From IMG/VR virus record IMGVR_UViG_3300029723_000002, positions 1-64,000 of that record: a DNA stretch of 64,000 bases; one strand, given 5' to 3'. A program made the position numbers and the translations under genes. This stretch comes from a virus. Positions 1 to 59,144 of the stretch are shown here, piece by piece. Each line of letters begins with the position of its first letter. The stretch's first letter is position 1. Under the pieces are notes generated by a model. That model was not told where the DNA came from. It did not search any database and saw nothing but the letters and a program-made list of their open reading frames with translations.

Positions 1-381
1 TACTCTCATTTTTTCTAAGGTTCTATACGCCGTTTTAATAAGACTAAGAATTCTTGAAGAATCTTTTATTTCTTGATACTTTCTACAAGCTGCTCTAAAA
101 TCTGGATCATTTCACTCATCATCTGTTAATCCACTATCTTCTAATGCTGCTAAATGTCTTTCTTGCTCAAGATATTGCTGATAAGGACTTTTTCAATCTA
201 TCATCAGCCATATATACTTAAATTCTTTTCAAGCTCTTAATCTTTTTAAACCCTTTGGGTCCTCTTTGCATTTATTGCGTTCAGGATCTCAAAGGGTTTT
301 AAATTCATTAATTAACAAGATTCCATATTCATTTATGCGTAACGAACCAGTTGCGTTGTCATAAAGAAATATATCTTGCAT
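1..381 (-). CDS. hypothetical protein, 5' part only (gene runs off the window start); 5 in-frame TGA codons
   Basis: Minus-strand translation from ATG (plus 379-381 cat) gives MQDIFLYDNATGSLRINEYGILLINEFKTLWDPERNK...TAYRTLEKMRV with no TAA/TAG down to position 1. TGA is read as W. Not in the ORF track because TGA fragments it. Confidence 0.45.
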
Positions 382-431
382 TATTTTTTCTTGTTAAGTA
401 AACCTCCCAGACGATATATACCTAAATCTTT

Positions 432-1022
432 TCACCTTTGTTGGTAGAATTTATAATCAGGATGATTTTTTCCAACTACTATTTCCAGATCTGGAAGTGG
501 ATTAGAAACTTTAAAGGTAGTGTCTCCTGATGGACGTATATCTCGTTCAGTATACACACCTCCACTATGAACTCGGTCCATTTGTCTTCCCGAAGGAGAC
601 TTAACTCTCTGAAGAGTTCTAGTTCTGCCATCACCTAAGGATGGCAAAGCGGTGTGTGGAGCACGCCAATTAAAAGAATAATTCCAAGGTGTTAGAAGTC
701 ATTTTGACCAGGTTTTTACGCCGTCTTGACCTTTTATAATCTTAGCATTCTTTTTATTACATCCACAATCAGAAGTTTTACCTCCTTTTTTGTAACAGTT
801 TACTAAATAAGCTAATTTACCGCCTTTTTTAAAAAGCTCTGATTTAGGAGCTTCCGTTTCAGTTTTAAATTCTTCCATTAATCGACTTATTTCATTCATT
901 CCTTCTTTCGTTTTAGAGATTTGGTTTAAAGCAGAAACAATTTCTTCTGGAGATTTACCTTCTAATTCCTTTATTTTGGTCGGTAACCACTCAATAAAAG
1001 CTTTAAGCTCTTGTTCTTCCAT
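432..1022 (-). CDS. hypothetical protein; track ORFs 432..647 and 699..1022 fused across an in-frame TGA at 699-701
   Basis: The two track ORFs are in the same frame and separated only by TGA. Codons 648-698 were checked and contain no TAA/TAG. The real stop TAA at 1053-1055 separates this gene from the upstream gene. Confidence 0.5.
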
Positions 1023-1052
1023 ATTATATTGAATTATTTGACTTATTATTTA

Positions 1053-1340
1053 TTACTTGAAAAACTTAGGATCACAAGATCTAAAGTTCTTTTCAAGTTC
1101 TGTTAGTTTACCATCAAAGTGAATTAAATCTTTAGTTGAAAAAACAGCTTCTTGTAGATCCATATTAGTATTAAACCATCTACATTTAATTCCTTTAAAC
1201 ACATTATTTAATTCATCATTATGTTTAAAAGTTTTTGTAACTTTTTCAACTACATACATAATAGGAGCATTTAATTGTACATGTTTTAATGTTACAATAT
1301 CTCCTGGTTTAAAAAATGTTTTTTCAATTTCTTCAATCAT
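1053..1340 (-). CDS. hypothetical protein (95 aa)
   Basis: Track ORF. Its stop/start is tightly coupled to the neighbouring gene. Confidence 0.45.
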   Translation of the reverse strand: MIEEIEKTFFKPGDIVTLKHVQLNAPIMYVVEKVTKTFKHNDELNNVFKGIKCRWFNTNMDLQEAVFSTKDLIHFDGKLTELEKNFRSCDPKFFK

Positions 1341-1341
1341 A

Positions 1342-1863
1342 CTATTTATCTTTTTCTAATACTCGACATATAACATTTTGCTCACTTAGAGCATAATAGC
1401 CTCTAGTGTCAAACGGCACTGGGACGGCAGTGTTTCTATAATATATATCTTCGCCAACCTTAACATATTTACATTCAGGTCCAACTGATATAACATGACC
1501 ACATGCAATAAATTCTTCTGCATCTTCCTGTTCGCCACTTTCGTGTGATTTATATGTTCGATTAACATCAAATCCTCCAATTAATAAACCAGATGCTGAG
1601 GTTTTTAACTTTCTATAAGGATTTTTATTATATGGTTTTAAAATAATAGTATATCCTGTGGCTGCTAAATATTTATTATCACAGTTTTTTGCACCCTCAT
1701 TAAGTTCTACTAACCTAGCAGCTAAAGCGAGTTGCTCTTGTTCTTCTTGTTGTTTTAAGGTTTCTAATTCTTCTTTTGTAGGTTCAGTATTGTTTTTGAG
1801 ACCAATGCCCATATAATGGGTTCCTACGGCTTCCATGTGTGTGTTTCCTAAAATATTACTCAT
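1342..1863 (-). CDS. GroES-like co-chaperonin (Hsp10/phage gp31-like), tentative
   Basis: The pattern ILKPYNK...SGLLIGG...HESGE...GHVISVG...VKVGEDIYY...ICRV resembles the GroES mobile-loop and beta-barrel signature. Judged by eye only. Confidence 0.4.
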   Translation of the reverse strand: MSNILGNTHMEAVGTHYMGIGLKNNTEPTKEELETLKQQEEQEQLALAARLVELNEGAKNCDNKYLAATGYTIILKPYNKNPYRKLKTSASGLLIGGFDVNRTYKSHESGEQEDAEEFIACGHVISVGPECKYVKVGEDIYYRNTAVPVPFDTRGYYALSEQNVICRVLEKDK

Positions 1864-1890
1864 AATTCATAAACATTAAATTAAACATTA

Positions 1891-2160
1891 TCATAAATTT
1901 ATAATACAGTGTGCATTTTGCACTCTGGTCTTCGCGCTGATCCTGCATCCGCAGCCTCTTGTAAATCCCAATTTTGGTTTGTCTGAAACTTCTTTATCTT
2001 TATTAATATATAAATTAGGATTACAAATTGCACCAATTGGTCCCTCCTTATATAAGGGACAGGTTTTACAGATTTTTAATCTTTGTTCTGATAAAGATTC
2101 ATTTCTTCCTAAAACTTCATTAACATGACCATTAATTATATCTCCTACCTTCATACTCAT
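1891..2160 (-). CDS. small Cys-rich (zinc-ribbon-like) protein
   Basis: Track ORF with CKTCP...CGCRIS cysteine pairs. Confidence 0.4.
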   Translation of the reverse strand: MSMKVGDIINGHVNEVLGRNESLSEQRLKICKTCPLYKEGPIGAICNPNLYINKDKEVSDKPKLGFTRGCGCRISAKTRVQNAHCIINL

Positions 2161-3101
2161 TAAAATTTAATAGGTTTATCTCTATCTAGTTCTGTTTTGA
2201 TTTTTATCGATCTCTTATAATGCTTTAACATTCTCTCTACATCATCTTTAAGATATTCACATTTATATTCAGTAACTTTATTATTATGATCAGTGTGAAC
2301 TATCCTTAATGATTTAATTTTAAATTTTGGATTTATTTGTTTAAGTAAATAAGCGTATAACGACAACTGTAAAGAATAATGATAAAAATTACAATCCATT
2401 AAATTATTTAATGGAAATTTCATAGTTTGATATTTACGAGTCGTTTTATCAAAATAAGATTTTTGTTTTATTTCTCTATTAGTCTTGTAGTCAACAATAT
2501 AGACGTCATTCCCATCAATAATCAACAGATCTATTTGACCTGCAATACGTAATAATCCATCCTTTGACTTTACACTAATTAAGTATTCAGGATACACTCC
2601 TCTTGGCAGATCAAGTTTATAGTAACCTTTTTTACAAGTAAATTTTCCTCCTAGTCCAAATTTTTTTAAATCCTGTTCTTCTGATTTATAAAATTGATTT
2701 TCGTATTCAGCATGTATTTTAGTCCCTCTTTCACAAGATTTATTTTTTTCATCTTCATATCCCTGAAGGATTTCAGCTCGTTTGTCTTCAAAGACAACTG
2801 GATCTAGTCCCAACTTCTCTATAAGACTCGGATCTCATCTTTTTGTTGTTAATAAAACAGGCTTTAATGATGAAAAAATTTCAGGCTTTAGCAATGCTTC
2901 AGCAGCTTTATATGCTGATCAAAATGCTGAGTCAAATGGGTTAGTATAATTATGTATCAACGTAGTAACTGATACATAAGGAATATTATCTTGCTTATCT
3001 ATGTAGATATGTTTATCATCAGAATAAATAACATTATCATCCTCTTTATCTACCTTATAACCATTAACATATTTTACTTTTGCATTATCTAATTTAGGCA
3101 T
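2160..3101 (-). CDS. PD-(D/E)XK family nuclease (RecB/Cas4-like) with 2 in-frame TGA
   Basis: Motif GQIDLLIIDGNDVYIVDYKT (D...D/E-x-K). Track ORFs 2160..2813 and 2919..3101 are in the same frame and were joined through TGA at 2919-2921 and 2835-2837. Intervening codons were checked and contain no TAA/TAG. The start is ATG at 3099-3101. Confidence 0.55.
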
Positions 3102-3126
3102 ATTAATTTCGTTGTATTAAATATTT

Positions 3127-3735
3127 TATTTCACCGCTATCTGTATATAAACGTTGTACAATAGTTTCGACATCTATATCTTTGGGTATAGAAGCTCAAG
3201 TAACACCAAAAATTCCAATATCTTTTCCTGTATTATCCTTAATAAGAATACAAGCTAAATAAGCAACATTATTTTTAGCTAGTTGCTCATATAATACTCT
3301 ATCATACTTCTGTAATTCGTTTAAATCTCCCACAAATAAGTTATGATCCTTAAGATAATAAGGAAGATTTAGTCATGTTAAATTAAAATCATTGTATTGA
3401 GTTTGAACTGGTTCTAAATTAGAACGAGTTAACTCAAATCTCATTGTTCCATGTTGTCAGTCCATAATCCCATTATGGTACTGAATTATTCAAACGCGGT
3501 CTGCTCTATATTTATAGAGATATGTTGGAAGATTATTTTTAATTTGGCGATCTAATTCTGCTCTTTCATGTAGTTCAATATCGTGTTTTTCTATTACAAA
3601 CTTATTATACCTTTCAAATATATATTCAGGATCAAAACAAAGCCGTAAAGAAAAACTTAATATTATTAATAACATTGTAGCTTTAATAATATTAAACACT
3701 CCATATTGTTTTATATAATTTAAGAGAGTTCCCAA
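3127..3735 (-). CDS. hypothetical protein, about 202 aa, 4 in-frame TGA
   Basis: Track ORF 3490..3735 ends at TGA. Codon-by-codon extension continues to TAA at 3127-3129 (...LYTDAGE*). Confidence 0.45.
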
Positions 3736-3923
3736 TCAAGAGAGGCCAGAATCAATATTAGGTTGTTTTTTCATTATTATAAGTAATCATATTGTTAATC
3801 AATTTAATACTAATCGCAAATATACAACATATATAGCTATTATCCAAATAATTTAAATGTTTATTTGCAAATGAGTTATAGATTGGTTATCTTTGCATAA
3901 TAACAATTATAAATATATTTATT

Positions 3924-4199
3924 ATGAGATACAATAACGATATTTTAAACAAAATAATTTCTACAACATCAGAAAAAGTAGACAACAAAACTCATCTAGA
4001 TAATATTATGAATGGTTATCTAGAAATGATGAAGAAAGGCAGTAAAATTCATATCAAGAAAGCTAATCGTGGAAAATTTACTGCTTACTGTAAAGGAAAA
4101 GTGACCTCAGAATGTATTACAAAAGGTAAAAATTCTCCTGATCCTAAAGTTAGAAAGATGGCTACATTTGCTGCCAACAGTCGTAAGTGACATAAATAA
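3924..4199 (+). CDS. small basic protein
   Basis: Track ORF 3924..4190 ends at TGA. Readthrough adds WHK, then TAA at 4197-4199. Confidence 0.4.
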
Positions 4200-4450
4200 T
4201 GAAAAATAACTTCTTTATTAAGATGTTTACGGCACATTCAGGTTTATCAAGTAAACGAGTGTGTGGATTTATTGGATGGATAGTATGTCTTTTTATTTGT
4301 ATATGATGCACGATATATACTATTCAAGCACCTATAATTGCTGATACTTTATTTATCTGTAGTGCTGCTTTATTAGGAGTAGATGCTGTTATGAGACCTT
4401 TTTATAAACACAAAAACCAAAATGACAAAGAAGATAGTAAAGATTCTTAG
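4199..4450 (+). CDS. small hydrophobic membrane protein (holin candidate), 1 in-frame TGA
   Basis: ATG overlaps the upstream TAA. MKNNFFIKMF...GFIGWIVCLFICIW... Two hydrophobic segments. Stop is TAG at 4448-4450. It sits immediately upstream of the endolysin. Confidence 0.4.
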
Positions 4451-4559
4451 ATGAATTTGAGAATTTCCACAATGTCTACTAGGTATAGTTCTTATAAACT
4501 TATATAAAGCTCAGTATATTAGTACTTATAAGAAAATAGATTTCTATATTACAGATAGA

Positions 4560-4808
4560 ATGAAAGGTGGTATATCATGTGGTCTTTATGTAATACTACA
4601 TAAAGAATTATATGCTAATAAAAATAATATTCTGCATGAATGAGGTCATACTAAACAATCATTATATTTTGGATGATTATATCTTCCAATCATTGGATTA
4701 CGTAGTGGTGTACATGCACTAGTGCATAGTAAAGTCTGTAATAAACTACAGAAATATACTCATTATTGAACAGAAAAGTGGGCAGATAAATTAGGAGGAA
4801 TTAAATAA
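4560..4808 (+). CDS. small protein with 3 in-frame TGA (lysis-cassette member, function unknown)
   Basis: MKGGISCGLYVILHKELYANKNNILHEW... The stop TAA at 4806-4808 overlaps the ATG of the next gene. Confidence 0.35.
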
Positions 4809-5245
4809 TGTTAGCTAATAAATATTTTGATGTTAAAGAATTAGTTCCTAAAGAAGTATATGAGGAACTTGGAGATCAAGGATCTCTAAATTTATTAAAT
4901 CCTATTGCATTAAAAGCCTTAGAAGAGGTTAGAGAAATATTGGGTGTCCCATTAATTTGTAATAACTGAGCAGCTGGTGGCTCAAGAAATTATTGTGGAT
5001 ACCGACAAGAAAATTGCCCTATTGGAGCTAAAGCAAGCCAACACAAAAGAGGTAATGCATTTGACTTAATATGTAAAAGTAAATCAGCAAGACTTATGAG
5101 ATATGAACTTGAACAGAATAAATCTAGATTAACATATCCAATTAGAATAGAAAAATGAGATCAAAAAGGCAATGAAACAACGTGATTACATATTGATACA
5201 AAGAGTTTTACAGGAAATGGTAAAATTTATTTCTTCAGGGCGTAA
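4808..5245 (+). CDS. peptidase M15 family (zinc D-Ala-D-Ala carboxypeptidase-like) endolysin, 3 in-frame TGA
   Basis: The sequence NNW AAGGSRNYCGYRQENCPIGAKASQHKRGNAFDLI matches the Peptidase_M15 signature (G-G-x-R...S-x-H...G-x-A-x-D). The reading frame was checked through to TAA at 5243-5245. Confidence 0.65.
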
Positions 5246-5391
5246 ATATATCTGTAGAATATTAGGATGATTATTCTTATTCCTATTTATTTTTACTGTA
5301 AATTTATATTATTTAATTCCAATTAGTTGTTTAGTAATATCATTAGTATTTACTATCTTAGATGAATTAACACGTTTTAATGATAAAAATG

Positions 5392-5425
5392 AAAAAGGCA
5401 GTCAATAAGACTGCCTTTTGTTTTT
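5392..5425 (+). terminator. rho-independent terminator after the lysis cassette
   Basis: aaaaaggcagtc-aataa-gactgcctttt stem-loop followed by ttttgttttt. Confidence 0.6.
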
Positions 5426-5537
5426 ACTTATAATATAGATTCTTAAACTCATTTCATAGTTCTCATTGTCTCTGTGAAGCCTCTTTCTCTCAAGGTCTAC
5501 TTGCATAAGACTGTAAAGGAATCTGTTTCTTTCCTTT

Positions 5538-5978
5538 TCAAATAAAGTATAGTTTATTATCTTTTTCTTCCATTACTAAATCCCCTCTTTCATTCTGATC
5601 AAAATGAACCATTTCGTGACATATAATGGATTCTAAAGAGACTCCAGGATCTTCTCTTATAATTAAACTATAAGTGTGAGGAACTATGTTTTTATATAAA
5701 ATAGCTTGTAATTCTATATCCTTAGTTGAATATTTATTTAATATGCTATTATTAGAATATATTGTTATATTAGCTGTATCATACCCCATTATTTTATTTC
5801 CAATAACTTTCACTAAGTCAGTAATATCATAATCTCTTGGAGATTCAATAAGACTAGTTACTTGAAAGGTTTCAGGAAAGGTAAATGTATTTCTTTCTTT
5901 TTTCTTACTCATTAGTAGTATTATTAATATAATAAACAATATACCAATGATTATTAAAGGTATATATCAAGTTTTCAT
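5538..5978 (-). CDS. HExxH zinc metallopeptidase-like protein with N-terminal membrane anchor; 1 in-frame TGA near the N-terminus
   Basis: Track ORF 5538..5939 contains IICHEMVHF. In-frame upstream extension through TGA reaches ATG (plus cat 5976-5978): MKTW YIPLIIIGILFIILIILLMSKKK... Confidence 0.5.
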
Positions 5979-8200
5979 TATGGCCTCCTATAATTCATTC
6001 ATTTTGTTTGAAACTCTGGGAGATCTTTATTTATAGATTGTTCATATGGCATAGTTCCATCAATTAATCCTCGAATATAACCATATCTTAATCAATTTCC
6101 TCTTAATGTGTCTTTATTAAAGACTGTTTGTTCAGTAATTCATCGATTAACTAGATTCGGATCATTGTAATCAGAGTATTCCGAAAGTAAATTTAATGTA
6201 CCTCCAATTTTTGCTCCCATATATTTTAGGTGTAATAATGCTGATTGAAAATTTTCAGGAAGCTTATTTACATCTACATTATATTTTGCAGCAGTATCTT
6301 TTACTACTTGCCATTCACTGTCTACAGCTAACTTATCAATAAATTTAATATCATCTAATGATAACTCATTTTTTAAAGATCTCTCATAGATATCTGGAGC
6401 TTTCTCTTTAAGTAGTTTATCACTAACCCCATGACCAATCAGCATTAATCCATTTTTCGCATAATTCGGATCTTTATATCACGACAAATGCCTTTTTATG
6501 CCCTCAAATGATCCTATTTGTTGCTGAACAATATCTAAATCTAAATTTGAATAAGTTTTTGGAGCTTGTCAGTTTTTATTAGCTCTATCAAACGATTTTT
6601 GTTTTGGAGGTTCTATTGATGGAATAAATTTACCACTGTTCTGAAATTTAGGAATAATACCTCCTAATTTGGCACTTTTAACGTTATCGTTTTTCTTTAC
6701 AGGAGCCTTTGCTACATCATTTAATAAGAATAATAAAAAATCATCATTGTATCTATTAAATAAATCAGGATCTCCCTCTGATTTATAATGACGAAACATA
6801 GTAGCATCTTCTAAATGCCAATCTTTAGTAGATCCAGGATAAATCGAAAAATCAATTTTATCAACTACTTTAGCTACTTTCTTACCTGTATTGTTATTTT
6901 TAAAAGTATATCCATATTGTATTTTTTGAGTCTGTTTATCTCTAAACTCCTCAATTTCTTTCTCAGTAAAGACATGTGTGGGATCAATATTATGCTGTCT
7001 TCTAAATTGCATTAACCTAGAATAAATCTCAGCAGGATTATCTAAATAATCATCCTGAGAAACATGTATAGTGTGAATAGGTCTACGTTTCTCGTATTCT
7101 TTAATAGTGTCGATTATAAAATAAGGATTCGTAGAATGAGCTAATTCATGAGCTGCTATTTCACTTACAGGTACTTTACTATTAGCTTTTACAACTAAAT
7201 AGTGATCCTCTGGATTATAAAAACCTTCTTTATTTTCCATAAGCTTATCAGAAATATCGTACCTAAGTAACTTACCCAGAGGACCATTGACAACTTGTTT
7301 ATACTCTTCTTGTTCCTCGGGACCAGAGTTATATAAATATGTATCAACAGAAGTTAATCTGTCATTTAATCAATGGTATCCTAATGTTTTACTCTGTAAT
7401 CATTTTGGAAGTGATGACCGCTCTCATAGATTTTTATTAATAATATGTCTTCTTTTATTATACCAGTTAGTCATTCATTCTTGAGTCGACTCAATGTCTT
7501 CTCGATCTGTTCAGCGATCCTTAATTCTTCCACCTTCTTGTAACTTTTTTAGAATACCTCCTAGTTTAGAATTTTGTATCATCTTGTGTAATACAGACTG
7601 ATACTTAGGATCAGTAGCATAACCACCTCGTGCTACTCTAGATGCAAAATCATTCACAGATCCAGAAAATGCTCTATATCTCTTATTATTTAATAAGTTA
7701 ATCTTATAATTAGCATAATCTTCTAAAGAAGAAAAATCCTTAAATTCCTGATTTAATCTTATATCCTTACCATTAATAACTTCTCGTGTGCTAGCAACAG
7801 TACCTTTACCTTTGATCCCTCCAAAATTGAATAATCCAGAAGGCTTTTTACCTCAAGCTGATTCCAACCCATCTTGTGCTACTAAAGCCTTAGCAAATGT
7901 GGGATTTAATCCTTTTTGCCTTAGTAACCTTTCATATATAGGAGTCATTATTGATTTAAACTCTTCCTTAGAAGTAAATTTTTTAATCGGTTTCTTAACT
8001 AAAGACTGATATTCTTCTATGGGAGTTTCTTGTATACTTAAATCAATAGAAGACTCAACTGAATTTTCTTCTGGAATATCAGAAGCTTCTTTAGTAACTA
8101 AATATTTAGGAGTATATTCAGATACAGGAACAGGTCTGGATAAAGAATAGTCTGTATTAAAGCTGTCCTCTCGTATATAAGGTCTATATGTTATATCCAT
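5978..8200 (-). CDS. large virion-associated peptidoglycan hydrolase: N-terminal FlgJ-type glucosaminidase domain plus HExxH metallopeptidase-like domain; 741 codons with about 11 in-frame TGA
   Basis: Track ORFs 7853..8200, 6569..7240 and 6140..6445 are all in one frame. Every codon between them was translated and no TAA/TAG was found from the ATG (8198-8200, preceded by in-frame TAA at 8219-8221) to TAA at 5978-5980. The N-terminal stretch ...AQDGLESA W GKKPSGLFNFGGIKG...YRAFSGSVNDFASRVARGGYATDPKY matches the Glucosaminidase (PF01832-like) ESGWG...NN[LF]FGIK...YATDP pattern. The middle carries HELAH. Confidence 0.6.
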
Positions 8201-8261
8201 AATAATGTAGTTTATTAATTATCTTGCAAATATAATAATTAATAAACAGTATTGCAAATAA

Positions 8262-8540
8262 TTATATTATCTCAATAGTGTGAATTTTATTCAATTTTTC
8301 AAGTTCGACAATTCTTGTGTTAAGATTAGTAATATGAGATTCTTGCAAGTCTATTTTATTTTGTAAATAAGTAATCTGATCTTTTAAAGTCTTAAGCTCT
8401 TGTAAAACTTTTGATAAATCGATGGAAAGGGTTAGCTCATTTTTAATAGGATGTGTAGTTGTATCATAATAATAACTTGGAGTACTATAAGGATTCGAAG
8501 AATCTGAAAATAAATCTCCAATGTAACTGGTAGTAGTCAT
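8262..8540 (-). CDS. coiled-coil protein
   Basis: Track ORF with heptad-like LQELKTLKDQITYLQNKIDLQESHITNLNTRIVELEKL. Confidence 0.4.
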   Translation of the reverse strand: MTTTSYIGDLFSDSSNPYSTPSYYYDTTTHPIKNELTLSIDLSKVLQELKTLKDQITYLQNKIDLQESHITNLNTRIVELEKLNKIHTIEII

Positions 8541-8543
8541 ATA

Positions 8544-9287
8544 TTAAAAGTTAAATTTATGTAAATCTTGATTCTGTCGAAGAAGTTTCTCATTTTCTCT
8601 TTTTAATGCTAAAATTTCCTTCTTTAACATCTTAATATCTTCTGTATGTCTTTCTAATTGCTCTGTATGTTCATCAACCTTTTTATTAATGAATAATACA
8701 GCTTGACAAACTAAAGCTAAATCAACAAGCTTTGCAGTTTTTCTAAGTCCTGTAATCTTATCAAAAGCACTAGTCCTATTAGTAATTAATATACCTTTAT
8801 CTTCCAATTGTCTAAAGATCCTGGATAATACTTTAACACTCATATCCATCTTATCTGCTAACTCTCGATTAGAAGCTAAGGTAACCGCATACTTTCCATC
8901 AGATTTATTTGTATACTGTTGCATAGCTAATAACACTCCTTTTTCTTCTGGGGTAGTATTATCAGCTTCTAAAAATTCATAAGTAAATCGTTCAAAATAT
9001 TTACCTGTTTTTTGAATTTCATAAATATTACTTCTACCACGCTTCTTATCTAGTAATTTAATCTCTCCAGCATCTTGTAATTTTTTAATACTTGATTGTA
9101 CCGTGTTAACTGACACTCGTGCAAGATCAGCTAAAAACCTAAAAGATACGAAAGTCTGAAATGTATTTTTGTCCATGTACTTTCGCATATAACCATAAAT
9201 CAAATAATCTGTGGGACTCATTTTAATCTCTTTTGTGCTGCCCAGATTTCTAGGAACTTGAATGTGTTGTACATTTTTATTATCCAT
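8544..9287 (-). CDS. winged-HTH DNA-binding protein, replication initiator/regulator-like
   Basis: Track ORF. The N-terminal segment FLADLARVSVNTVQSSIKKLQDAGEI and a second ADKMDMSVKVLSRIFRQLEDKGIL look like two wHTH units as in Rep or transcription-regulator proteins. The gene lies next to iteron-like repeats. Confidence 0.4.
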   Translation of the reverse strand: MDNKNVQHIQVPRNLGSTKEIKMSPTDYLIYGYMRKYMDKNTFQTFVSFRFLADLARVSVNTVQSSIKKLQDAGEIKLLDKKRGRSNIYEIQKTGKYFERFTYEFLEADNTTPEEKGVLLAMQQYTNKSDGKYAVTLASNRELADKMDMSVKVLSRIFRQLEDKGILITNRTSAFDKITGLRKTAKLVDLALVCQAVLFINKKVDEHTEQLERHTEDIKMLKKEILALKRENEKLLRQNQDLHKFNF

Positions 9288-9391
9288 AATATGTTTTTAG
9301 TTTTATTTACAAATATAATAAAAACTATTTGTTGTATCAAATCTTTATATAACTTTTTAACAAAATGACAAGAATATCTTATAAAGTTAGT

Positions 9392-9487
9392 ATCCCGTAG
9401 AGATACACTTGTGTCTCCTAGAGATACACTATGAAAAAATTACTATCCCTCAGAGATACACTTACTATCCCGTAGAGATACATATCT
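9392..9487. repeat. four direct iteron-like repeats, TATCCC(G/T)(T/C)AGAGATACA(C/T), spaced 21-32 bp
   Basis: Repeat cores AGAGATACAC/T start at 9399, 9420, 9452 and 9474. Copies 1, 3 and 4 share an 18-nt unit. A short inverted repeat ttaagtcttcagacttaa follows at 9525-9545. The array lies in the intergenic region upstream of the Rep-like gene 8544..9287. Confidence 0.55.
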
Positions 9488-9558
9488 ATAGTACTATATA
9501 TCCTCCTGGGGTCGGATAGATCTAGAGTTAAGTCTTCAGACTTAAACAACGCTGAGTT

Positions 9559-10443
9559 TTAGAAGTTATTTAAATTATTATAGATTTGAGTAATTATCAT
9601 CTTAAATTGTTCAATCGATAAATTATTTTTCATCATATTAACAATTAATGTACAAATATATACATTGCCCTTAATATATCCTTTAGAAGAATCAATTCTA
9701 TCTATTGTGGGATATGTTAACTTGTCTCTAAAATTGTTTTTAAATTCAGTGCCGCTGTATATACATTTATTATCTTGTTTATCTAATAATTCTCTAATGT
9801 ATTTAATGTCTAAATTATATTCATAGCCTTGGCTTTGGGCATTTTGTTTGCTCCTTTTATATAATCTTTCTTCTAAAGGTATTATGTCACGTAAATGTTT
9901 GTTATAACAGTCTATACATATAGACTTTGATGTATTAAACTTTTTAACGTCAGATTCACCACAGTAAATACATTTTGGTTCTGTTTTACTTGATCTGTTA
10001 TATATCTTATATCCCTTGTCATCCTTTTCTAAATGAGCATTAGACTCAATCGTTTTCTTAACATAAGATATTCCTCCCAAAAGTTGGTTTCTAGTATATC
10101 CTTGATTTTCAATTTTCTTATCCTTAACAGTGTTATAGGTTACTACTTCACCTCATTCTGTAAGTTGATCTAATAATTCGATTAAGTATTCTTTAGATCT
10201 TATATCTAAATTCTCTTCTCAAATAAAATTTGGACAGTCTAATACTTTATTAATTTTAATGTGTTTTGCATAACCATTGGTAGTGCAATCTTCAATTAAT
10301 TTCATACGTTGAAGTTCTTTTATGCTGTTTTTAAAAAAATCATTTTTAGCAACAGCATTTAAATTGGTAAATGTAAAATCGGCATATCCATCTTTCTCAA
10401 AGGCAGATAATGCCATTAATGCTAATTTTTGTCTCGTTTTCAT
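9559..10443 (-). CDS. HNH homing endonuclease (free-standing), 2 in-frame TGA
   Basis: The C-terminal region has the Cys pairs CIYCG...CIDCYNKH and TIDRIDSSKGYIKGNVYIC (HNH motif). Track ORFs 10219..10443 and 9559..10080 are in the same frame and were joined through TGA at 10219-10221 and 10153-10155. All 46 intervening codons were checked. Confidence 0.6.
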
Positions 10444-10666: not shown

Positions 10667-10960
10667 ATGAAAACAACTCTTGAGTATCTTCAGTCTATAG
10701 CTCCAGAATCTTCTGACATTATTTGTGTTGCTAAGCTTCGTGGCCGAAGAGCTGATCCTAAAGAAGCCTCTCAGATTGTTCGGGAGCGTATTAAACATCG
10801 TATTTCAGTTGTTGAAGACGTTTTAAACGAACTACACAATTGCTGTAAGGCTCTGGACCATACAGAAATTTCCTGCGCAATTATTAATACTGTCGCAGAT
10901 AGGATTGTCAATGATGCTTTTACAAAGCTTATCTGGAGTATAAAAGAAAAAGGAGAGTAA
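10667..10960 (+). CDS. hypothetical protein (first gene of the GC-richer island)
   Basis: Track ORF 10616..10960, trimmed to the first ATG at 10667. Local GC is about 45% against about 29% for the surrounding sequence. Confidence 0.4.
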   Translation: MKTTLEYLQSIAPESSDIICVAKLRGRRADPKEASQIVRERIKHRISVVEDVLNELHNCCKALDHTEISCAIINTVADRIVNDAFTKLIWSIKEKGE

Positions 10961-16064: not shown

Positions 16065-16149
16065 GCTCCTGTGGTGAAAATGGTAAACACACACCTCTTA
16101 AGAGGGTGCGCCGTAAGGCTTGTCAGTTCGAGTCTGACCAGGAGTACCA
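16065..16149 (+). tRNA. tRNA-Leu(UAA), type II, CCA encoded
   Basis: Hand-folded. Acceptor gctcctg/caggagt. Three-bp D-stem gtg/cac. Anticodon stem cacct/gggtg with loop cttaaga. Variable arm gccgtaaggc. T-arm gtcag-ttcgagt-ctgac. Discriminator a, then cca. Confidence 0.7.
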
Positions 16150-17627: not shown

Positions 17628-18451
17628 TAACAAATAAATTCATTTTTTATTTGGTATAGATAAAGCTTTTTAATATCTTTGTATACAATAAATATATAAA
17701 GAATATGTCAAAAGTAAAATGAACCAAAGAACTACTTGAAAAAATAGTACCTGAATGTTATTCATATGCAGAGGTGCTAAGAAGAGTGGGATTAAAGCCT
17801 ATGGGTAGTAATCCAAAGACTTTAATTAAAAAATTAAATGAATTTAACATAGATTATTCACATTTTACAGGACAAGGATGAAATAAATACGGACATCCAA
17901 GTTTTGGAAACTCAGGAAAAGCACTTACAAGTGTGTTGAATAAAAATAGTTCTTTGCCTTCTTCAAAGGTTAAAGAAAGATTACTAAATAATCACTTGAA
18001 AGAGAATAAGTGTGAAGTATGCGGTATTACTGAATGACAAGGTTCTCCAATTATATGTGAATTACATCACATTAATGGAGACACAACTGATAACAGGATT
18101 GAAAATTTACAAATATTATGTCCTAATTGTCATAGTCAAACAGATAATTTTAGACGCAGAAATGTGAAAAAGGTAGTGAGCACTCAGAAGGAAACTTCTG
18201 ATGTGAATGTAGGCTAATTCGGCGAAGGTATCAGCCTTATAAATGATAATAACGCCGAGCTAAGTAAGTAGAAGGAATTTTCGTTTTTGTTCGTAATTCT
18301 TAATATATCGTCCAACGGGAGTGTATGTATACTAGCACCGACGCGATAACTTCTACTTTAAATGTGTAGAGACTATACACCTACCTCCTAAACTGAAAAG
18401 CATGGAGAAGACATAGTCCACGTAATTAGCTGATTCTCAGGCTATTACGAG
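17628..18451 (+). mobile_element. group I intron (824 nt) carrying an HNH homing endonuclease ORF
   Basis: Core elements seen downstream of the ORF: P4 pairing ttcggcg...cgccga, an R-like gtagagactata and an S-like gaagacatagtcca. The last nucleotide is G. Confidence 0.6.
17705..18217 (+). CDS. intron-encoded HNH homing endonuclease (170 aa), 3 in-frame TGA = Trp
   Basis: MSKVK W TKELLEKIVPECYSYAEVLRRVGLKPMGSNPKTLIKKLNEFNIDYSHFTGQG W NKYGH...CEVCGITE W QGSPIICELHHINGDTTDNRIENLQILCPNCHS. The GQGWNK and EW tryptophans are encoded by TGA. Confidence 0.7.
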
Positions 18452-20737: not shown

Positions 20738-20820
20738 GCTATTATAGCTTAATTGGTAGAGCAAGTGTAACATAGGGCCCTATGTTACTATGAGCGTTGG
20801 TTCGAATCCAACTAATAGTA
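20738..20820 (+). tRNA. tRNA-like element whose anticodon arm is replaced by a 22-nt perfect palindrome (gtaacataggg|ccctatgttac)
   Basis: Canonical acceptor gctatta/taatagt. Leu-like D-arm gct-taattggtag-agc. T-arm gttgg-ttcgaat-ccaac. No 5+7+5 anticodon arm can be drawn. A second orphan ggttcgaat and a 9-bp hairpin agtgctagg...cctagcact follow at 20824-20890. Confidence 0.35.
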
Positions 20821-25825: not shown

Positions 25826-25854
25826 CAGTACCAACACTGTTAATATACTGCCTT

Positions 25855-25935
25855 ATCGCCCCTGTCTTATACACAGTCATTAAAAGCGTAGTTGGTGTAC
25901 GCAGGTTCGAGTCCTGCAGGCAGTACTTTTTAAGA
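25855..25935 (+). tRNA. tRNA-like element with an intact acceptor/T-arm but an irregular 5' half
   Basis: Acceptor actgcct/aggcagt. T-arm gcagg-ttcgagt-cctgc. The internal 45 nt do not give a canonical D-arm. A 4-bp stem ctgt/acag with loop cttatac (UAU) is possible. Confidence 0.3.
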
Positions 25936-27475: not shown

Positions 27476-27760
27476 ATGAAAGAATGGGAACAAAAAAATT
27501 TAGTAAGACAAATACTATATAACCTTCAAAAGACATTTGATCGTTATTGTAATAGTATTGACTTATATTGTCCATTAGCAACTACTCAACTCAATAATAC
27601 ATATAACTGGGCATTAAGCGTTATGGATCAGTTAGAAACTTCGTTTCCACTTAGTTGTGTTAGTAAAGTAGGATTTTTAGAAGTTAGAGTTTATATTGAG
27701 AATACTCACTATCGATTAATAAATACGATATTAAATAATAGTAGTAATGGAAGTAAATAA
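27476..27760 (+). CDS. hypothetical protein
   Basis: Track ORF. Confidence 0.4.
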   Translation: MKEWEQKNLVRQILYNLQKTFDRYCNSIDLYCPLATTQLNNTYNWALSVMDQLETSFPLSCVSKVGFLEVRVYIENTHYRLINTILNNSSNGSK

Positions 27761-28340
27761 TTTTCTACTTCTTAAAAAGCTTTTGAAATTTGAGAATAGA
27801 GATGATTTCTATTTTTTACAAATCCTTCAAAGGTCTAAAGATAATCCTGACTTAGGCGCCAATAATAGATTAATAAAGGCATACTCTGTTGGCAGTATTG
27901 AATATCTAAATAAAAAGGAGAAAGAAATCAAACTTCTTTGTAAGACCTTTAATGCAAGAGCTTATATCCATCTTACAAAACGTAGCTATAAAGACGTAGC
28001 ATTAGAGATGTTACAGAACTTAGTACAACGTATTCGTTGCGATCAAATGGAAGAAGTCTATAGATGTTTTACAACAGCATGTGGAATTTCCTACCAAAAG
28101 GAAGATAAATCTTGGATTGTAGATATAGATGGTAACGTAGATCATCGTACAATCAACACAATTTTGAGATTTATTGAAGCTGAATGTGAACCTATTGGTT
28201 CAAAATTTATTGCTTTAGTTCCAACAGTTAATGGTCATCATCTTATTACTACTCCATTTAACTTACAAAAATTTTCAGAACAGTATCCTGAAATAGATGT
28301 TCATAAAAATAATCCAACTCTTTTATATTATAAAAACTAA
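27747..28340 (+). CDS. hypothetical protein
   Basis: Track ORF. Confidence 0.45.
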   Translation: MEVNNFLLLKKLLKFENRDDFYFLQILQRSKDNPDLGANNRLIKAYSVGSIEYLNKKEKEIKLLCKTFNARAYIHLTKRSYKDVALEMLQNLVQRIRCDQMEEVYRCFTTACGISYQKEDKSWIVDIDGNVDHRTINTILRFIEAECEPIGSKFIALVPTVNGHHLITTPFNLQKFSEQYPEIDVHKNNPTLLYYKN

Positions 28341-28564: not shown

Positions 28565-28855
28565 GATATGGTGTTGCCTGGTTGGCCTTACATAACCAGA
28601 GGTAGACCTTTCCAGAAAGGCCGTCTTTCTTAGTTTATTCGTTAATATAACTAAGCTCCAGACCATAGCTAGAATGTCTGAAAAAACTTATAAAGTTTTG
28701 TCCTCACCGTTAGACGTTAAATAACGGTATTTGTTTGATCTGTAAGAATAATTAGATGAATTAATGGTCAGTCTTTAAGGAATCTAAGAAGAATAACAGG
28801 GATGTTGTTCTCAAACACGTTGTTAAGGAGTTTCAACGTTAAATAGACTCCCATC

Positions 28856-29261
28856 GGGGGATACAGGTATTGACTAGTATATCGAAAGTTATTAATCAAG
28901 CTGAGTTTGAATAATACTCATTAAACAGATTCAAAAAATAAACGCAAACAAAACTATTTCGAGAGCTATTAACAAGGTTAAGAACTCTCTCGCTCCTATG
29001 ATGACTCTGACTCGTTCTGAAGTTGCATATGCAGCGTAGGCTTGTATCGCCTTATAATAGATACAAACTGGGTTTCTTTGTTTAGACATAAAAACAAAGT
29101 GGTGGAAGTTGACCTAACTGGTCAGCCCTACTGTTCCATTGACGTTGGGAACTAAAAACTAATGCTATCGAGGTGTGGACAACCAGAAATGTATCCTAAG
29201 CTTGTAAGTATGTTAATAATAATAGAATACTAACACATGAGTTCGAATCTCATATCCTCCA
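28856..29261 (+). ncRNA. ssrA: candidate tmRNA (SsrA-like), about 406 nt
   Basis: The 5' gggggat pairs with the 3' atcctcc to give an acceptor stem with G3:U70 (Ala identity) and discriminator A. T-arm atgag-ttcgaat-ctcat. An internal reading frame starts at GCA (28944), 88 nt from the 5' end, and ends ...SEVAYAA-TAG at 29037-29039. The element sits in a 718-nt ORF-free, GC-richer intergenic region. Confidence 0.5.
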
Positions 29262-29282
29262 CTAAATCAATAAGTTACATAT

Positions 29283-39661: not shown

Positions 39662-40144
39662 ATGAAACCATTAAAAAAGAATATTATCTTCTTAGATATT
39701 GATGGTGTTCTTAATTATACAAATTGGTATTCTAATCCTAGAAACTTTGGAAATATTAACGGTCAAGAAGGAGACTTAGATCCATTTTGTATTGAACGAG
39801 TTAATATATTAGCTAAAATAACTAATTCTTATATTGTTATATCTAGTGACTGGAGGTATGATGAGAGACAATGTCGAATTAGACTGGAAAAAGCTGGTTT
39901 AACAGCTTTAATTATTGGATTTACCCCAATTCATCTATGGAATGAAAAGCAGTTAGATAAATCTAGAGGAGCAGAAATCCAAAGTTGGTTAAATAATAAT
40001 CTATGTATTGTAAATAATTATGTTATACTAGATGACAGAACAGATATGTTAGAACACCAACTTAGAAATTTCATATATGTAAATAGTCATATAGGATTAT
40101 CTGATGATGATATAAATGAAGCTATTATTATTTTATCTAACTAA
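39662..40144 (+). CDS. HAD-superfamily phosphatase-like protein
   Basis: IIFLDIDGVLN matches HAD motif I (DxDG[VT]L). Confidence 0.45.
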   Translation: MKPLKKNIIFLDIDGVLNYTNWYSNPRNFGNINGQEGDLDPFCIERVNILAKITNSYIVISSDWRYDERQCRIRLEKAGLTALIIGFTPIHLWNEKQLDKSRGAEIQSWLNNNLCIVNNYVILDDRTDMLEHQLRNFIYVNSHIGLSDDDINEAIIILSN

Positions 40145-40671: not shown

Positions 40672-40744
40672 GGAGTTTAAGCTAATCTAGTGAAAGCACT
40701 AGACTGAAAATCTAGGGAGCCAGGAGCGTAACCTGGAAACTCCA
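40672..40744 (+). tRNA. tRNA-Phe(GAA)
   Basis: Acceptor ggagttt/aaactcc. Anticodon stem ctaga/tctag with loop ctgaaaa. T-arm ccagg-agcgtaa-cctgg. Confidence 0.55.
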
Positions 40745-41030: not shown

Positions 41031-41102
41031 GCATTGTTGGTGTTAGTGATAGCATATGTGACTTCCAATCACAAGGGGAGAGTTTGAATCTCTTACAATG
41101 CT
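41031..41102 (+). tRNA. tRNA-Gly(UCC)
   Basis: Acceptor gcattgt/acaatgc. Anticodon stem tgtga/tcaca with loop cttccaa. T-arm gagag-tttgaat-ctctt. Confidence 0.5.
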
Positions 41103-42860: not shown

Positions 42861-43736
42861 ATGATAAAAATTTACGATCCTAAAACTAATACACTTGATT
42901 GGAAGTTGTTAGACCAAATTCCAGAGATAGTAGCTTTAAAAAACACTCCTCAGAATCAAAAACATCATAAAGAAGGAAATGCTTTTATACATACATGTTT
43001 GGTAACACAAAATATGCTTGATTGTATTGAGCTAGGGCATCCTTTTATTGAAAAACAACACATGTTTGAAGATGATGATTTTAAGGAGATGTTAGTATTA
43101 TCTGCTTTACTTCATGATATTGGCAAACCCACTGTAACTAGTCTTGGAGAAGACGGCTTATATCATTGTAGAAATCATGCTGAAGAAGGAATAAGAATTG
43201 CTGATCCAATGCTTAGAGAATACTTTAAAGATGATAAAATGAAGGACTTTAAAGTTTTAGCAATATGTAATATGATTAGATACCACATGCGTCCTTTATA
43301 TATTTTTAGTAAGGCAAATCCAGCAAATAGAATATTATCATTAGCAAATGATTTGAAATATGTTTTAATGGATGCTCTCTTGTTGTTAAAGTATTGTGAT
43401 TGTAAAGGTTCTATAACTGATGAAGATACCAGGTGGTACGAAATGTTACAAAAAGTGAGAGAGTTATATTATAATACAGTTACCTATAAAGCTGGAGAAG
43501 AAGTTACGATTGAAAAAATTAGTGACAATACTACCTGTGAATATGAATCTGGAAATCATCCGAATGGTATTAATGTAGGATATCGTCGATCAGGTAAATT
43601 ACAATATCCTGTAACGGTTGGAACTAGGTGTACTATTGGGTTTCCATTCTCTAGCTCTCCTGTAACAAAAATTATTGATAAATGTACTTTCGAAACAAAA
43701 AACTCAGTATATAAAATAGTTAAACCAGAAAAGTAA
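42861..43736 (+). CDS. HD-domain phosphohydrolase
   Basis: QNQKHHKEGNAFIHTC...SALLHDIGKP carries the H...HD...D motifs. Track ORF 42765..43736 was trimmed to the ATG at 42861 after the tRNA. Confidence 0.5.
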   Translation: MIKIYDPKTNTLDWKLLDQIPEIVALKNTPQNQKHHKEGNAFIHTCLVTQNMLDCIELGHPFIEKQHMFEDDDFKEMLVLSALLHDIGKPTVTSLGEDGLYHCRNHAEEGIRIADPMLREYFKDDKMKDFKVLAICNMIRYHMRPLYIFSKANPANRILSLANDLKYVLMDALLLLKYCDCKGSITDEDTRWYEMLQKVRELYYNTVTYKAGEEVTIEKISDNTTCEYESGNHPNGINVGYRRSGKLQYPVTVGTRCTIGFPFSSSPVTKIIDKCTFETKNSVYKIVKPEK

Positions 43737-48692: not shown

Positions 48693-48763
48693 GCCTTTGT
48701 CGTTCAATGGTAGGACAGCGCTCTTCAAAAGCGTGTATGTGAGTTCGAATCTTGCCAAGGGTG
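48693..48763 (+). tRNA. opal suppressor tRNA: tRNA-Trp-like body with anticodon UCA (reads UGA as well as UGG)
   Basis: Hand-folded, 71 nt. Acceptor gcctttg/caagggt. D-arm gttc-aatggta-ggac, as in Trp tRNAs. Anticodon stem gcgct/agcgt with loop cttcaaa (U33, UCA, A37). T-arm gtgag-ttcgaat-cttgc. Discriminator G73, which is the Trp identity base. Confidence 0.7.
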
Positions 48764-48793
48764 CTAACTGATTAAAAACTAACAAGTTATAAT

Positions 48794-57917: not shown

Positions 57918-59144
57918 ATGGACAGAACCGAAAGACAAAAAGTAGGAATAAGACGATGAATTGATGGGGGTGGAACAGGCACTCTTGCTTGGAGTACGGG
58001 TTTAGGTAAAACTTATGCTACAATGCTCCTAATAAAGGAATTACATAAGGCGAATCCCACCTTAGTTGTTTTAGTCGCGGTTCCTACTAATGTGTTAAAA
58101 GAACAATGAGTTAGAGAGTTGGTCAAATACCAGCTCTTTTCTGTCTGTAAGGTAGAAGTCTTTAACACTATTGTAAAACATAGTTATACAGTTGATTTAT
58201 TTGTAATAGATGAGTTACATAATGCTGCTAGTCCTGTACATATCTCGATGTTTGAAACAGTCAAGTACAGGTATTTTTTAGGCTTAACTGCTACGTTTGA
58301 ACGATTAGATGGCAGACATAAATTATTAGAACAGTACACTTCAATTTGTGATAAAATTACTATAGAAGAAGCTGTTCAGAATAAGTGACTATCTGATTAT
58401 CGAAACTACAAGGTAATACTCGATGTTGATCTGACTAAATATAATGAATGAAATCAAAAGTTCCAGTCATTATTTGCTTTATTTGATTTTAACTTTGATT
58501 TAGCTATGAAGTGTGTTCAAAGTCCAAGAATTGCAGCTTTATATGCTAAAAAACTTGGAAGAACACTAAAGGAAATAAGAGGCATTGCCGCTGCCTGAAT
58601 GAAAATGTTACGTAATAGAAAGTCCTTTGTAATGTCTCACCCTAAGAAGCTTGAAATAGCAAATAAAATTTTAGATGCTCGAAAGGATAAAAAGTGTATT
58701 ACATTTTCAGCTACAATCAAAGATGCAGAACAATTTAAATCTAGAGGAGCTCTTATACTACATAGCAAACAGAAGAAACAAGAGAATAAACAGATTATTG
58801 AAACCTTTAACAGTCTAACTTCTGGAGTGTTAAGTACTTCAAAATCTGCAGATGCTGGTTTAGATGTTAAAGGGTTAAGTGTAGGAATTATTCTTAGTGG
58901 TGACAGCTCTAAAACACGTACTACACAGAGGATCGGAAGAGCAATTCGTCAGGAGGAAGGCAAAATAGCAGAAATATTTACATTGGTTATTAGTAAAAGT
59001 ATTGAGGAGAACTGATATTCTAATGCTAATGTAAATCAACAGTATATTACTATAAATGAGAATCAATTAGATATTATACTTAATGGTGGAGAAGTGTCTA
59101 CTAAAATAAAGAGAGGTATTGCTGATACAAAATATAGATTTTAA
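57918..59144 (+). CDS. SF2 (DEAD/DEAH-like) helicase (408 aa), 6 in-frame TGA
   Basis: Motif I GTGLGKTYA. Motif II LFVIDELHNA. Motif III GLTATFER. Motif VI TTQRIGRAIRQ. The frame was checked from ATG 57918 to TAA 59142-59144 and includes track ORFs 58119..58388 and 58599..59015. Confidence 0.55.

Follow-up and report, generated by a model that had tools for sequence, protein, structure and literature searches.

A probably functional one-piece tmRNA with a long tag reading frame in a human-gut phage that most likely reads TGA as tryptophan

Introduction

Standard annotation pipelines call genes for transfer-messenger RNA (tmRNA, ssrA) in phages, and phage tmRNAs are routinely annotated, but their function is not established in the literature that we found. 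Lists of phage ssrA genes go back to 2014 or earlier (PMC4131195); 2.3% of isolate phage genomes have one (PMC9004378), and huge phages are among the carriers (PMC7162821). Here, we describe a tmRNA gene in the genome of a ~165 kb human-gut phage that most likely reads TGA as tryptophan. The stretch that we analysed, referred to below as the window, comprises 64,000 nt of this genome (positions 1 to 64,000 of IMG/VR record IMGVR_UViG_3300029723_000002). We infer from its conserved features that the element at positions 28856-29261 (+ strand) is, with high probability, a functional, phage-encoded, one-piece tmRNA. Phage tmRNAs as such are known; what stands out in this lineage is the unusually long tag (26-31 residues).

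The window gene resembles the tmRNAs of Bxz1-type mycobacteriophages, Bacillus phage G, huge phages and the OM43 phage Melnitz in being a complete ssrA gene within a large, tRNA-rich genome; such genes have been proposed to help keep up the hijacked translation machinery (PMC4131195, PMC12484599, PMC7162821, PMC9004378). It differs from the two-piece tmRNA of Melnitz in being one-piece, and its tag is much longer than that of phage G (AKLNITNNELQVA). Also unlike the known phage tmRNAs, it belongs to a phage in which TGA is a sense codon, and we saw neither a riboswitch nor a phage smpB gene.

With the bacterial one-piece tmRNA (RF00023; E. coli 10Sa RNA), the window gene shares a tRNA-like domain with the G3:U70 pair, a canonical T loop and a GG-bearing D-loop analogue, a long P2 helix, and pseudoknot 1 (PK1) followed by a single-stranded A-rich stretch and GCA, as well as a tag that ends in two alanines and a stop codon. 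It differs in having a tag of 31 codons, rather than the 10 codons that are the commonest tmRNA tag length (PMC11915505), and a tag that is basic rather than acidic or neutral. In addition, the phage gene has an extra hairpin inside the tag open reading frame (ORF), one stop codon that is backed up by further in-frame stops only 5 codons away, no encoded CCA, and no confidently recognisable PK2-PK4; it is phage-borne, and no smpB was seen nearby. Leaving aside the implications discussed below, the result is a clean annotation of an intact ssrA gene in an uncultured phage family.

Results

A full-length tmRNA gene at positions 28856-29261

The original prediction, made from the letters of the window alone, had proposed a phage-encoded tmRNA with an alanine-type acceptor stem, a tRNA-like T arm and a tag reading frame. 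We ran ARAGORN in tmRNA mode, which called a tmRNA at 28856..29262 with a tag identical to the one predicted. The Rfam tmRNA model RF00023 matched over its full length (model positions 1-374 of 374) with 73.4 bits, above the gathering score of 47, and an E-value of 1.2e-26, which excludes a chance origin of the tRNA-like sequence. Together with syntenic homologues, these matches define a one-piece gene of standard form that extends from G1 at position 28856 to the discriminator A406 at position 29261 (+ strand, as are all features below unless stated). The minimum free energy (MFE) fold of the tmRNA has a z-score of -2.96 relative to shuffled sequences, and its GC content of 0.365 compared with 0.295 in the 5-kb flanks (10 kb in total) bears out the predicted local rise. 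The prediction had also placed the gene in a 718-nt gap free of ORFs. The gap (28565-29282) indeed contains no ORF of at least 60 amino acids; the tmRNA, however, fills 406 nt of it, and the 5' 291 nt consist of hairpins and leader sequence.

The elements expected of a tmRNA are arranged in the standard order. The acceptor stem is formed by GGGGGAU (28856-28862) and AUCCUCC (29254-29260), followed by the discriminator A29261 (3' strand and discriminator, 29254-29261); as predicted, G3 (28858) pairs with the U at 29258, giving the alanine identity G:U pair. The D-loop analogue ACAGGUAUUGAC (28863-28874), with a conserved GG and UUGAC, aligns with the RF00023 consensus GAucuGGaUUCGAC at high posterior probability. 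The long P2 helix has its 5' strands at 28875-28901 (P2a 28875-28880, P2b 28888-28896, P2c 28897-28901) and its 3' strands at 29200-29232 (P2c 29200-29204, P2b 29212-29220, P2a 29227-29232). PK1 lies at 28902-28935, with stem 1 at 28902-28905/28917-28920 and stem 2 at 28906-28912/28929-28935. It is an H-type pseudoknot that pairs UGAG 47-50 with CUCA 62-65 and UUUGAAU 51-57 with AUUCAAA 74-80 (tmRNA numbering). The single-stranded AAAUAAAC (28936-28943) separates PK1 from the GCA resume codon (28944-28946), whose first base, position 89 of the tmRNA, has 88 nt before it, as had been claimed; the frame closes with TAG at 29037-29039. The predicted T arm is present at 29237-29253, with the stem AUGAG/CUCAU and the loop UUCGAAU (29242-29248); the tRNA-like domain has no anticodon arm.

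Compensatory changes in the tmRNA structure

Relatives were found through the protein of the upstream gene at 27747-28340 (phrog_14949), on IMG/VR contigs of 106-171 kb from one human-gut metagenome. All contigs whose phrog_14949 protein is 67-97% identical carry the tmRNA at the same position. The homologues fall into two clades: clade A consists of the window and near-identical variants (six variants), and clade B of contigs L003, L004 and L016.

Base pairs were counted in eight distinct sequences, over 97 nt at the 5' end and 75 nt at the 3' end. In this alignment, which was registered by hand, 98.8% of cells were paired over the 44 pairs of the acceptor stem, P2a-c, both PK1 stems and the T stem, and 20 of the 44 pairs had changed on both sides. 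Shifting the 3' partners by 1-3 columns as a control reduced the paired cells to 38-51%. All cells of the seven acceptor-stem pairs were paired, with four pairs changed on both sides between the clades, and G3:U70 was invariant in all eight distinct sequences. Compensatory changes were seen in nine of 21 P2 pairs and three of five T-stem pairs. In PK1, 94-100% of cells were paired; one of the four stem 1 pairs and three of the inner four stem 2 pairs are compensatory between the two clades, clade B having GGAG/CUCC and UGGU/ACCA, whereas the outer three pairs of stem 2 are confined to the window's clade. A pseudoknot that forms and covaries immediately upstream of the resume codon is the feature on whose absence the tmRNA reading would have foundered.

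Compensatory changes were also observed within clades, and are therefore independent of the split between A and B. Within clade A, pair 4 of the T stem is A-U or G-C, and pair 2 of P2a is A-U, G-U or G-C; within clade B, L003 and L004 differ at pair 3 of the T stem and pair 5 of P2b. Because the first alignment had been fitted by hand, we repeated the comparison unguided, with MAFFT and RNAalifold on 13 sequences, seven of them more distant. This run recovered P1, P2 and the T stem, with pairing kept through changes on both sides in 23 of 35 pairs. At the level of comparative sequence analysis, these substitutions demonstrate that the tmRNA structure is under selection.

A long tag reading frame

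The tag ORF (28944..29039), identified by ARAGORN and by alignment, starts at the GCA resume codon and encodes 31 codons, ANKTISRAINKVKNSLAPMMTLTRSEVAYAA, before TAG. Clade A tags follow the pattern ANKTISRAINKVKNSLAPMMTLTRSE[VI]AYAA (31 codons, TAG), and those of clade B are AKKTFRKMTNKVMSLAPSRDIEEVVLMAA in L003 (29 codons), AKKTFRKMTNKVMSLVPQTRLMAIAA in L004 (26 codons) and AKKTFRKMTNKVMSLAPQMRPMAMAA in L016 (26 codons), each with TAA. Tag lengths thus differ by whole codons only (31, 29, 26, 26). The resume context AAUAAAC-GCN is fixed in both clades, where the RF00023 consensus has AAUAAuU before GCa. Every tag ends in x-Ala-Ala and a stop, clade B with LMAA, AIAA or AMAA followed by TAA, and the variation in the 96-nt ORF of clade A amounts to one synonymous change and one Val/Ile change. 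The whole-codon length differences, the fixed resume context, the x-Ala-Ala ends and the scarcity of changes in clade A together indicate that the tag frame is maintained. No tag ORF stops at TGA, and the clade B homologues contain no TGA.

The tags are basic, that of the window being rich in Lys and Arg, and the N-terminal part, A-x-K-T-x-x-[RK]-x-x-N-K-V-x-S-L-[AV]-P, is common to both clades. Between the clades, the S-L-A within it differs at third codon positions alone. We considered selection on the peptide as the cause, and rejected this as confounded: these bases are also the 3' strand of a hairpin predicted within the ORF (28960..28992; MFE fold), which pairs CGAGAG (28960-28965) with CUCUCG (28987-28992) and UUAAC (28969-28973) with GUUAA (28977-28981). 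Since the S-L-A bases lie in this strand, constraint on the RNA and constraint on the peptide are inseparable in this sample. Clade B has GCAAG/CUUGC, GAC/GUC and UAAC/GUUA in the same place, in a register one base off that is inferred rather than counted.

We scanned IMG/VR with two conserved motifs and found seven more viral contigs with full-length tmRNAs (L028-L033 and L036; 59-98 bits). These come from other metagenomes, share GUGGUGGA and CUAAGCNUGU, in some cases adjoin tRNA genes, and match no isolate phage. Their tags (AEEISAFTFEDAMAFVGAEEYALAA, DEMSTMTFDDLMAFVGADYALAA-like, GTSNVDRVAEGEAILASIFGEVAIAA) are acidic, have 20-26 codons, and carry a conserved motif of their own. Long tags seem to be shared across a broader set of uncultured phages.

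A described parallel to such a tag is the 27-residue tag of Mycoplasma, which has been described as unusually long (PMC8403727) and is exceeded by the 31 codons of the phage tag. The two have in common a long tag, a genome in which UGA encodes Trp, and a short hydrophobic/alanine tag end, the Mycoplasma tag being read by Lon (PMC8403727). They differ in that the tags have no detectable sequence relationship, in that the Mycoplasma gene is cellular and belongs to an organism without ClpXP, and in that the host of the window phage most likely uses the standard code.

The properties of the tag bear on an alternative in which the phage RNA displaces or inhibits the host tmRNA, either by titrating SmpB or by replacing the degron with one that leads to another protease, to an adaptor or to no degradation. 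This would fit a basic tag of three times the commonest length whose N-terminal part is conserved between clades and whose S-L-A differs at third codon positions only, and it would fit the 20-26-codon tags of related viral tmRNAs with their own motif. There are precedents on both counts: a tmRNA-like molecule that consists of the tRNA-like domain only, like that of mycobacteriophage DS6A, inhibits tmRNA (PMC4131195, PMC11915505), and the long Mycoplasma tag is read by Lon rather than ClpXP (PMC8403727). The DS6A gene is, like the window gene, phage-borne, and both have a tRNA-like domain that could bind SmpB. However, the DS6A gene has no reading frame and is thought to be a tmRNA inhibitor (PMC4131195), whereas the window gene keeps its ORF, PK1 and stop codon. 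A pure inhibitor needs none of the three, and since all are conserved, a pure decoy is unlikely. Moreover, conservation of the ORF is partly due to the RNA hairpin, and every tag keeps the x-A-A that is typical of degradation tags. We regard a competitor of the host tmRNA as very unlikely, and favour a tmRNA that tags and releases.

The tag also offers a route to detection. The tryptic peptide NSLAPMMTLTR and the C-terminal SEVAYAA can be searched for in gut metaproteomes, where a match would show viral trans-translation in nature.

The tmRNA gene in its phage genome

A tmRNA gene on a viral contig need not be a working phage gene, because prophages often integrate into tmRNA genes and can carry pieces of them (PMC9004378, PMC4383910). 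The window element might then be a host ssrA gene beside a prophage, a recent passenger, or a chance tRNA-like sequence with an ORF. The last of these is ruled out by the Rfam E-value (1e-26). The gene is full length; within the window, phage-type genes and tRNA genes extend for at least 28 kb in both directions from it, and it is surrounded by phage ORFs and tRNA genes of its own strand. Its position is conserved across diverged phages together with compensatory changes, and both its GC content and its 3' flank are like those of the phage's own tRNA genes. Window proteins recur on contigs of 136-168 kb from several human-gut samples, and the contigs, of 136-171 kb, have terminase and portal genes. 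In the phage itself, a terminase large subunit (in two pieces) and a portal gene lie 10 kb beyond the left end of the window, and it is therefore a tailed phage.

A search with a pattern from the tag region returned more copies in other human-gut assemblies. The gene is syntenic in six IMG/VR contigs. A tag-pattern scan of 185,579 species genomes gave a single match, in a Colwellia metagenome-assembled genome without a tmRNA, which we attribute to chance, and no bacterial source was found. Among 50,697 phage records of INPHARED, neither the tmRNA nor the wider family had a match; the only matches were to the tRNA-Pro and to a 32-nt tRNA-Ala-like 3' end. Judged by synteny around phrog_14949, the tRNA-like 3' flank, the nearby terminase and portal genes and the lack of a bacterial counterpart, the gene is native to the phage, as the original prediction had supposed. 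An origin other than a working phage gene is extremely improbable.

The host can be approached through the closest matches of neighbouring genes. No INPHARED isolate is close to the phage. The best matches of the window helicase come from uncultured human-faecal phages (39-41% identity), ahead of crAss-like phages and Cellulophaga phage phi14:2, and the window tRNA-Pro is 95% identical to a Cellulophaga phage tRNA-Pro. These similarities are weak pointers to a Bacteroidota host.

Proposed role of the tmRNA and points that weigh against it

We propose, from established tmRNA biology, that the window tmRNA works as tmRNAs of this form generally do. It would be transcribed along with the tRNA-rich, standard-code block of the phage. 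RNase P would cleave the leader at G1, the 3' end would be trimmed after A406, and a CCA-adding enzyme would complete it. Host alanyl-tRNA synthetase (AlaRS) would charge the tmRNA with alanine by way of the invariant G3:U70 pair and, with SmpB and EF-Tu, presumably from the host, the charged RNA would enter ribosomes that have stalled, with their A site empty, on mRNAs that are broken or lack a stop codon. Translation would restart at the GCA at position 89, adding the alanine and 31 encoded residues, and end at UAG. The ribosome would be freed, and the truncated protein would be left with a C-terminal ...AYAA, which host AAA+ proteases probably recognise. Keeping ribosomes available during infection is the likely gain for the phage, a role that has been proposed for other phage tmRNAs (PMC7162821, PMC9004378). 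SmpB, AlaRS, EF-Tu, RNase P and the CCA-adding enzyme would presumably be supplied by the host.

Several observations weigh against this reading. SmpB was not found by tblastn in the window or the fetched loci, with an E. coli SmpB sequence as the query, nor was it present among the Pfam-scanned ORFs and the precomputed Pfam lists for 10 kb beyond each window end; the search covered ~84 kb, about half of the genome. Activity would depend on compatibility with the SmpB of the host. A scan of the leader for sigma-70 promoters and terminators gave nothing above chance, and the 290 nt upstream lack the Bacteroidetes TAnnTTTG box, which shows no clear enrichment in the window. The covariation comes mostly from two deep clades and, for the 44 pairs, from an alignment registered by hand. 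Exhaustive stem lists for both clades yield several mutually exclusive pairings for the partners of PK2-PK4. Lastly, the tag is unlike characterised degrons except in its last residues, and proteolysis is an assumption. The original prediction had likened ...AYAA to the ...ALAA end of degradation tags; as an argument for degradation, this is one of resemblance.

The tmRNA and the genetic code of the phage

Several genes of the phage are interrupted by TGA. A 746-codon frame at 5978-8218 (- strand) contains 11 in-frame TGAs, one of which, at 7855, lies within the Glucosaminidase domain at the W of ESxWG, and genes for a helicase (57918-59144, six TGAs), a DnaB-like protein, an HNH protein and a PD-(D/E)XK protein are split by TGA alone. 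Of 47 Trp codons at 0-8 kb, 39 are TGA, as are 19 of 26 at 56-64 kb. Zones in which TGA dominates the Trp codons extend over 0-10.4 kb (1-10443, - strand) and 56-61 kb (+ strand), whereas at ~18.5-50 kb TGA is in no confident ORF and TGG is used. TGA is a sense codon in this phage, most likely for Trp. Within the block that uses TGG only, in the standard code, lie the tRNA array, the tmRNA and a UCA-anticodon tRNA (48693-48764; 53.3 bits in Rfam, called 'SeC' by ARAGORN), which has a G discriminator and a G1:U72 wobble pair and is likely to be a UGA-decoding Trp tRNA. This arrangement matches TGA-recoded gut phages, in which the machinery of the code change is written in the standard code (bioRxiv 10.1101/2021.08.26.457843).

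These features raise the possibility that the tmRNA is specialised for the code switch, as part of a module for taking over translation rather than a generic helper. Once the UGA-reading tRNA is made, ribosomes would read past host UGA stops or pause at UGA, the demand for rescue would rise, and the phage tmRNA would meet it and attach its own long tag. The phage reads TGA as Trp, the tmRNA lies with the tRNA array and tRNA(UCA) in a TGA-free block, and none of the tag ORFs stops at TGA; moreover, work on recoded E. coli shows that tmRNA frees ribosomes halted at an unassigned stop codon and that it determines whether phages propagate (PMC6207430). On the other hand, many standard-code phages have tmRNAs (PMC9004378), the main survey of recoded gut phages leaves tmRNA unmentioned (bioRxiv 10.1101/2021.08.26.457843), and readthrough at UGA usually reaches another stop before the end of the mRNA. 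The short loci around related tmRNAs do not reveal the code used, since their ORF-length ratios are uninformative on this point. We therefore consider a specialised role in the code switch unlikely. We think it quite unlikely, in a stronger form of the idea, that the lineage's long tags (20-31 codons) exceed a generic degron role and that the window tmRNA is one component, with the UGA-reading tRNA and the tRNA array of the TGG-only block, of a code-switch module that clears ribosomes reading through or stalled at UGA and attaches a phage-specified peptide for a particular protease or adaptor. If true, this would tie phage stop-codon recoding to trans-translation functionally for the first time. 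This widespread, recoding human-gut phage is a test case for whether recoding phages need extra ribosome rescue.

3' end of the tmRNA and of the phage tRNAs

The 3' CCA is not encoded: the DNA reads ...TCC-A-CTA, with CTA at 29262-29264. CCA-less genes are common, and this is a trait of the gene rather than of the mature RNA. Of the 12 tRNA genes called by ARAGORN in the window, only that for tRNA-Leu(taa) (16065-16149) encodes CCA. For the tmRNA and the other 11 tRNA genes, CCA is absent from the DNA and would therefore be added after transcription. C-TAA directly follows the discriminator in the tmRNA (29262) and in six of the 12 ARAGORN tRNA genes (e.g. 36833, 37991, 40222, 41021, 42843, 48764); the shared flank suggests that the tRNAs and the tmRNA are processed at the 3' end by a single route and that the gene belongs in this genome. 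We considered an HD-domain ORF at 42861-43736 as a CCA-adding enzyme, and rejected it: its match to the PHROG tRNA nucleotidyltransferase is weak, and Pfam identifies an HD domain only. In an unrelated viral contig (L011), a tRNA-Ala(UGC) at 10791-10865 (- strand) has an acceptor stem (GGGGGAU/AUCCUCC) and T arm identical to those of the window tmRNA.

Region between the tag and the 3' strands of P2

PK2-PK4 would be expected at 29040..29199, where posterior probabilities of the Rfam alignment are low. A stem search identified hairpins at 29042-29048/29060-29066, 29076-29083/29092-29099 and 29108-29114/29120-29126, and the sequence comparison an invariant GUGGUGGA at 29099-29106. The hairpin at 29076-29099 covaries, with CUUGCAU/AUGCAAG in clade B and CUUGAU/AUCAAG in the wider family. 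A 12-bp helix in L003 was tried as a pseudoknot candidate, and was rejected because it is absent from L004.

The clade B tmRNA of L016 (IMGVR 3300045988_158715), like that of L020, has an insertion of 209-217 nt (L016 6592-6808) after the tag, in the PK2 region, whereas the window tmRNA has none. The L016 gene is missed by ARAGORN and scores 66.6 bits in Rfam. Its 209-nt insert matched no Rfam family at a permissive threshold and nothing among the other fetched loci.

Untranslated leader

The 291 nt upstream of the tmRNA (28565..28855) form an untranslated leader with terminator-like hairpins and a remainder. The hairpins, identified from the sequence and by comparison, lie at 28578-28599, at 28604-28626 and at 28706-28728, the latter two each followed by a T run. 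Two of them compensate within clade A (CTGGTT/AACCAG to CTGATT/AATCAG, and ACCGTTA/TAACGGT to ACTGTTA/TAACAGT). They are probably terminators of the upstream operon, and the rest presumably contains the promoter and the leader that RNase P would remove. The leader matched no Rfam family at a permissive threshold, and its fold has a z-score of -1.6.

A group I intron in the tmRNA gene of a relative

In a near-identical relative (L023, human gut contig OPBO01000138), the T loop of the tmRNA gene is interrupted by a group I intron of 877 nt (1949-2825; RF00028, 107.3 bits). The intron follows the UU of the T loop, equivalent to 29243/29244 in the window, and has a U at -1, a G as its last base, and a P1 of GGGUU/GGACCC. 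The window gene is the intron-less allele of this gene. Compared with the intron-form tmRNAs already described, the insertion site is, by our reading of the published numbering, the minor 'position 3', which is occupied there only in the class Bacteroidia, and the gene, at ~1286 bp, would exceed the longest one listed, 1152 bp (PMC11915505). Group I introns thus enter phage tmRNA genes at an apparently Bacteroidia-only site, which is a clue to the host and to traffic of ssrA introns between phage and host. The intron contains an ORF of 197 amino acids on the opposite strand, with in-frame TGA codons, whose C-terminus resembles the window ORF at 9559-10443; Pfam gives a zinc finger only for this putative endonuclease. 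In L003, a 44-nt stretch (4192-4235) that has no Rfam match at the gathering threshold shares 84% identity with the L023 intron's catalytic core, a hint that a clade B phage, too, has a group I intron.

Other genes of the window

The window has ~30% GC and contains 13 ARAGORN genes, the 12 tRNAs and the tmRNA. Rfam found 15 tRNAs, including four missed by ARAGORN (20738-20820, 25847-25925, 40672-40744 and 41031-41102), for ~16 in all, every one on the + strand among many small ORFs. The Rfam tRNA at 20738 has a long extra hairpin in place of the anticodon arm, and that at 25847 scores only 29.8 bits. PHROG and Pfam matches in the window include CobS/CobT-like proteins, AAA+ ATPases, a radical SAM protein, an RNA-repair HAD domain, helicases, DnaB, and HNH and LAGLIDADG endonucleases. 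The HAD domain, of the kind found in 'Swiss Army Knife' RNA-repair proteins (PF18143, E 4e-28), is encoded by an ORF at 39662-40144 (+) directly 5' of the tRNA cluster. Homing endonucleases are frequent. Outside the window, NrdD is split by a NUMOD4/HNH gene (L038 14637-17639, L041 12068-14927), and terminase is also split; within it, free-standing HNH and LAGLIDADG genes lie at 17705-18217 and 61128-61925.

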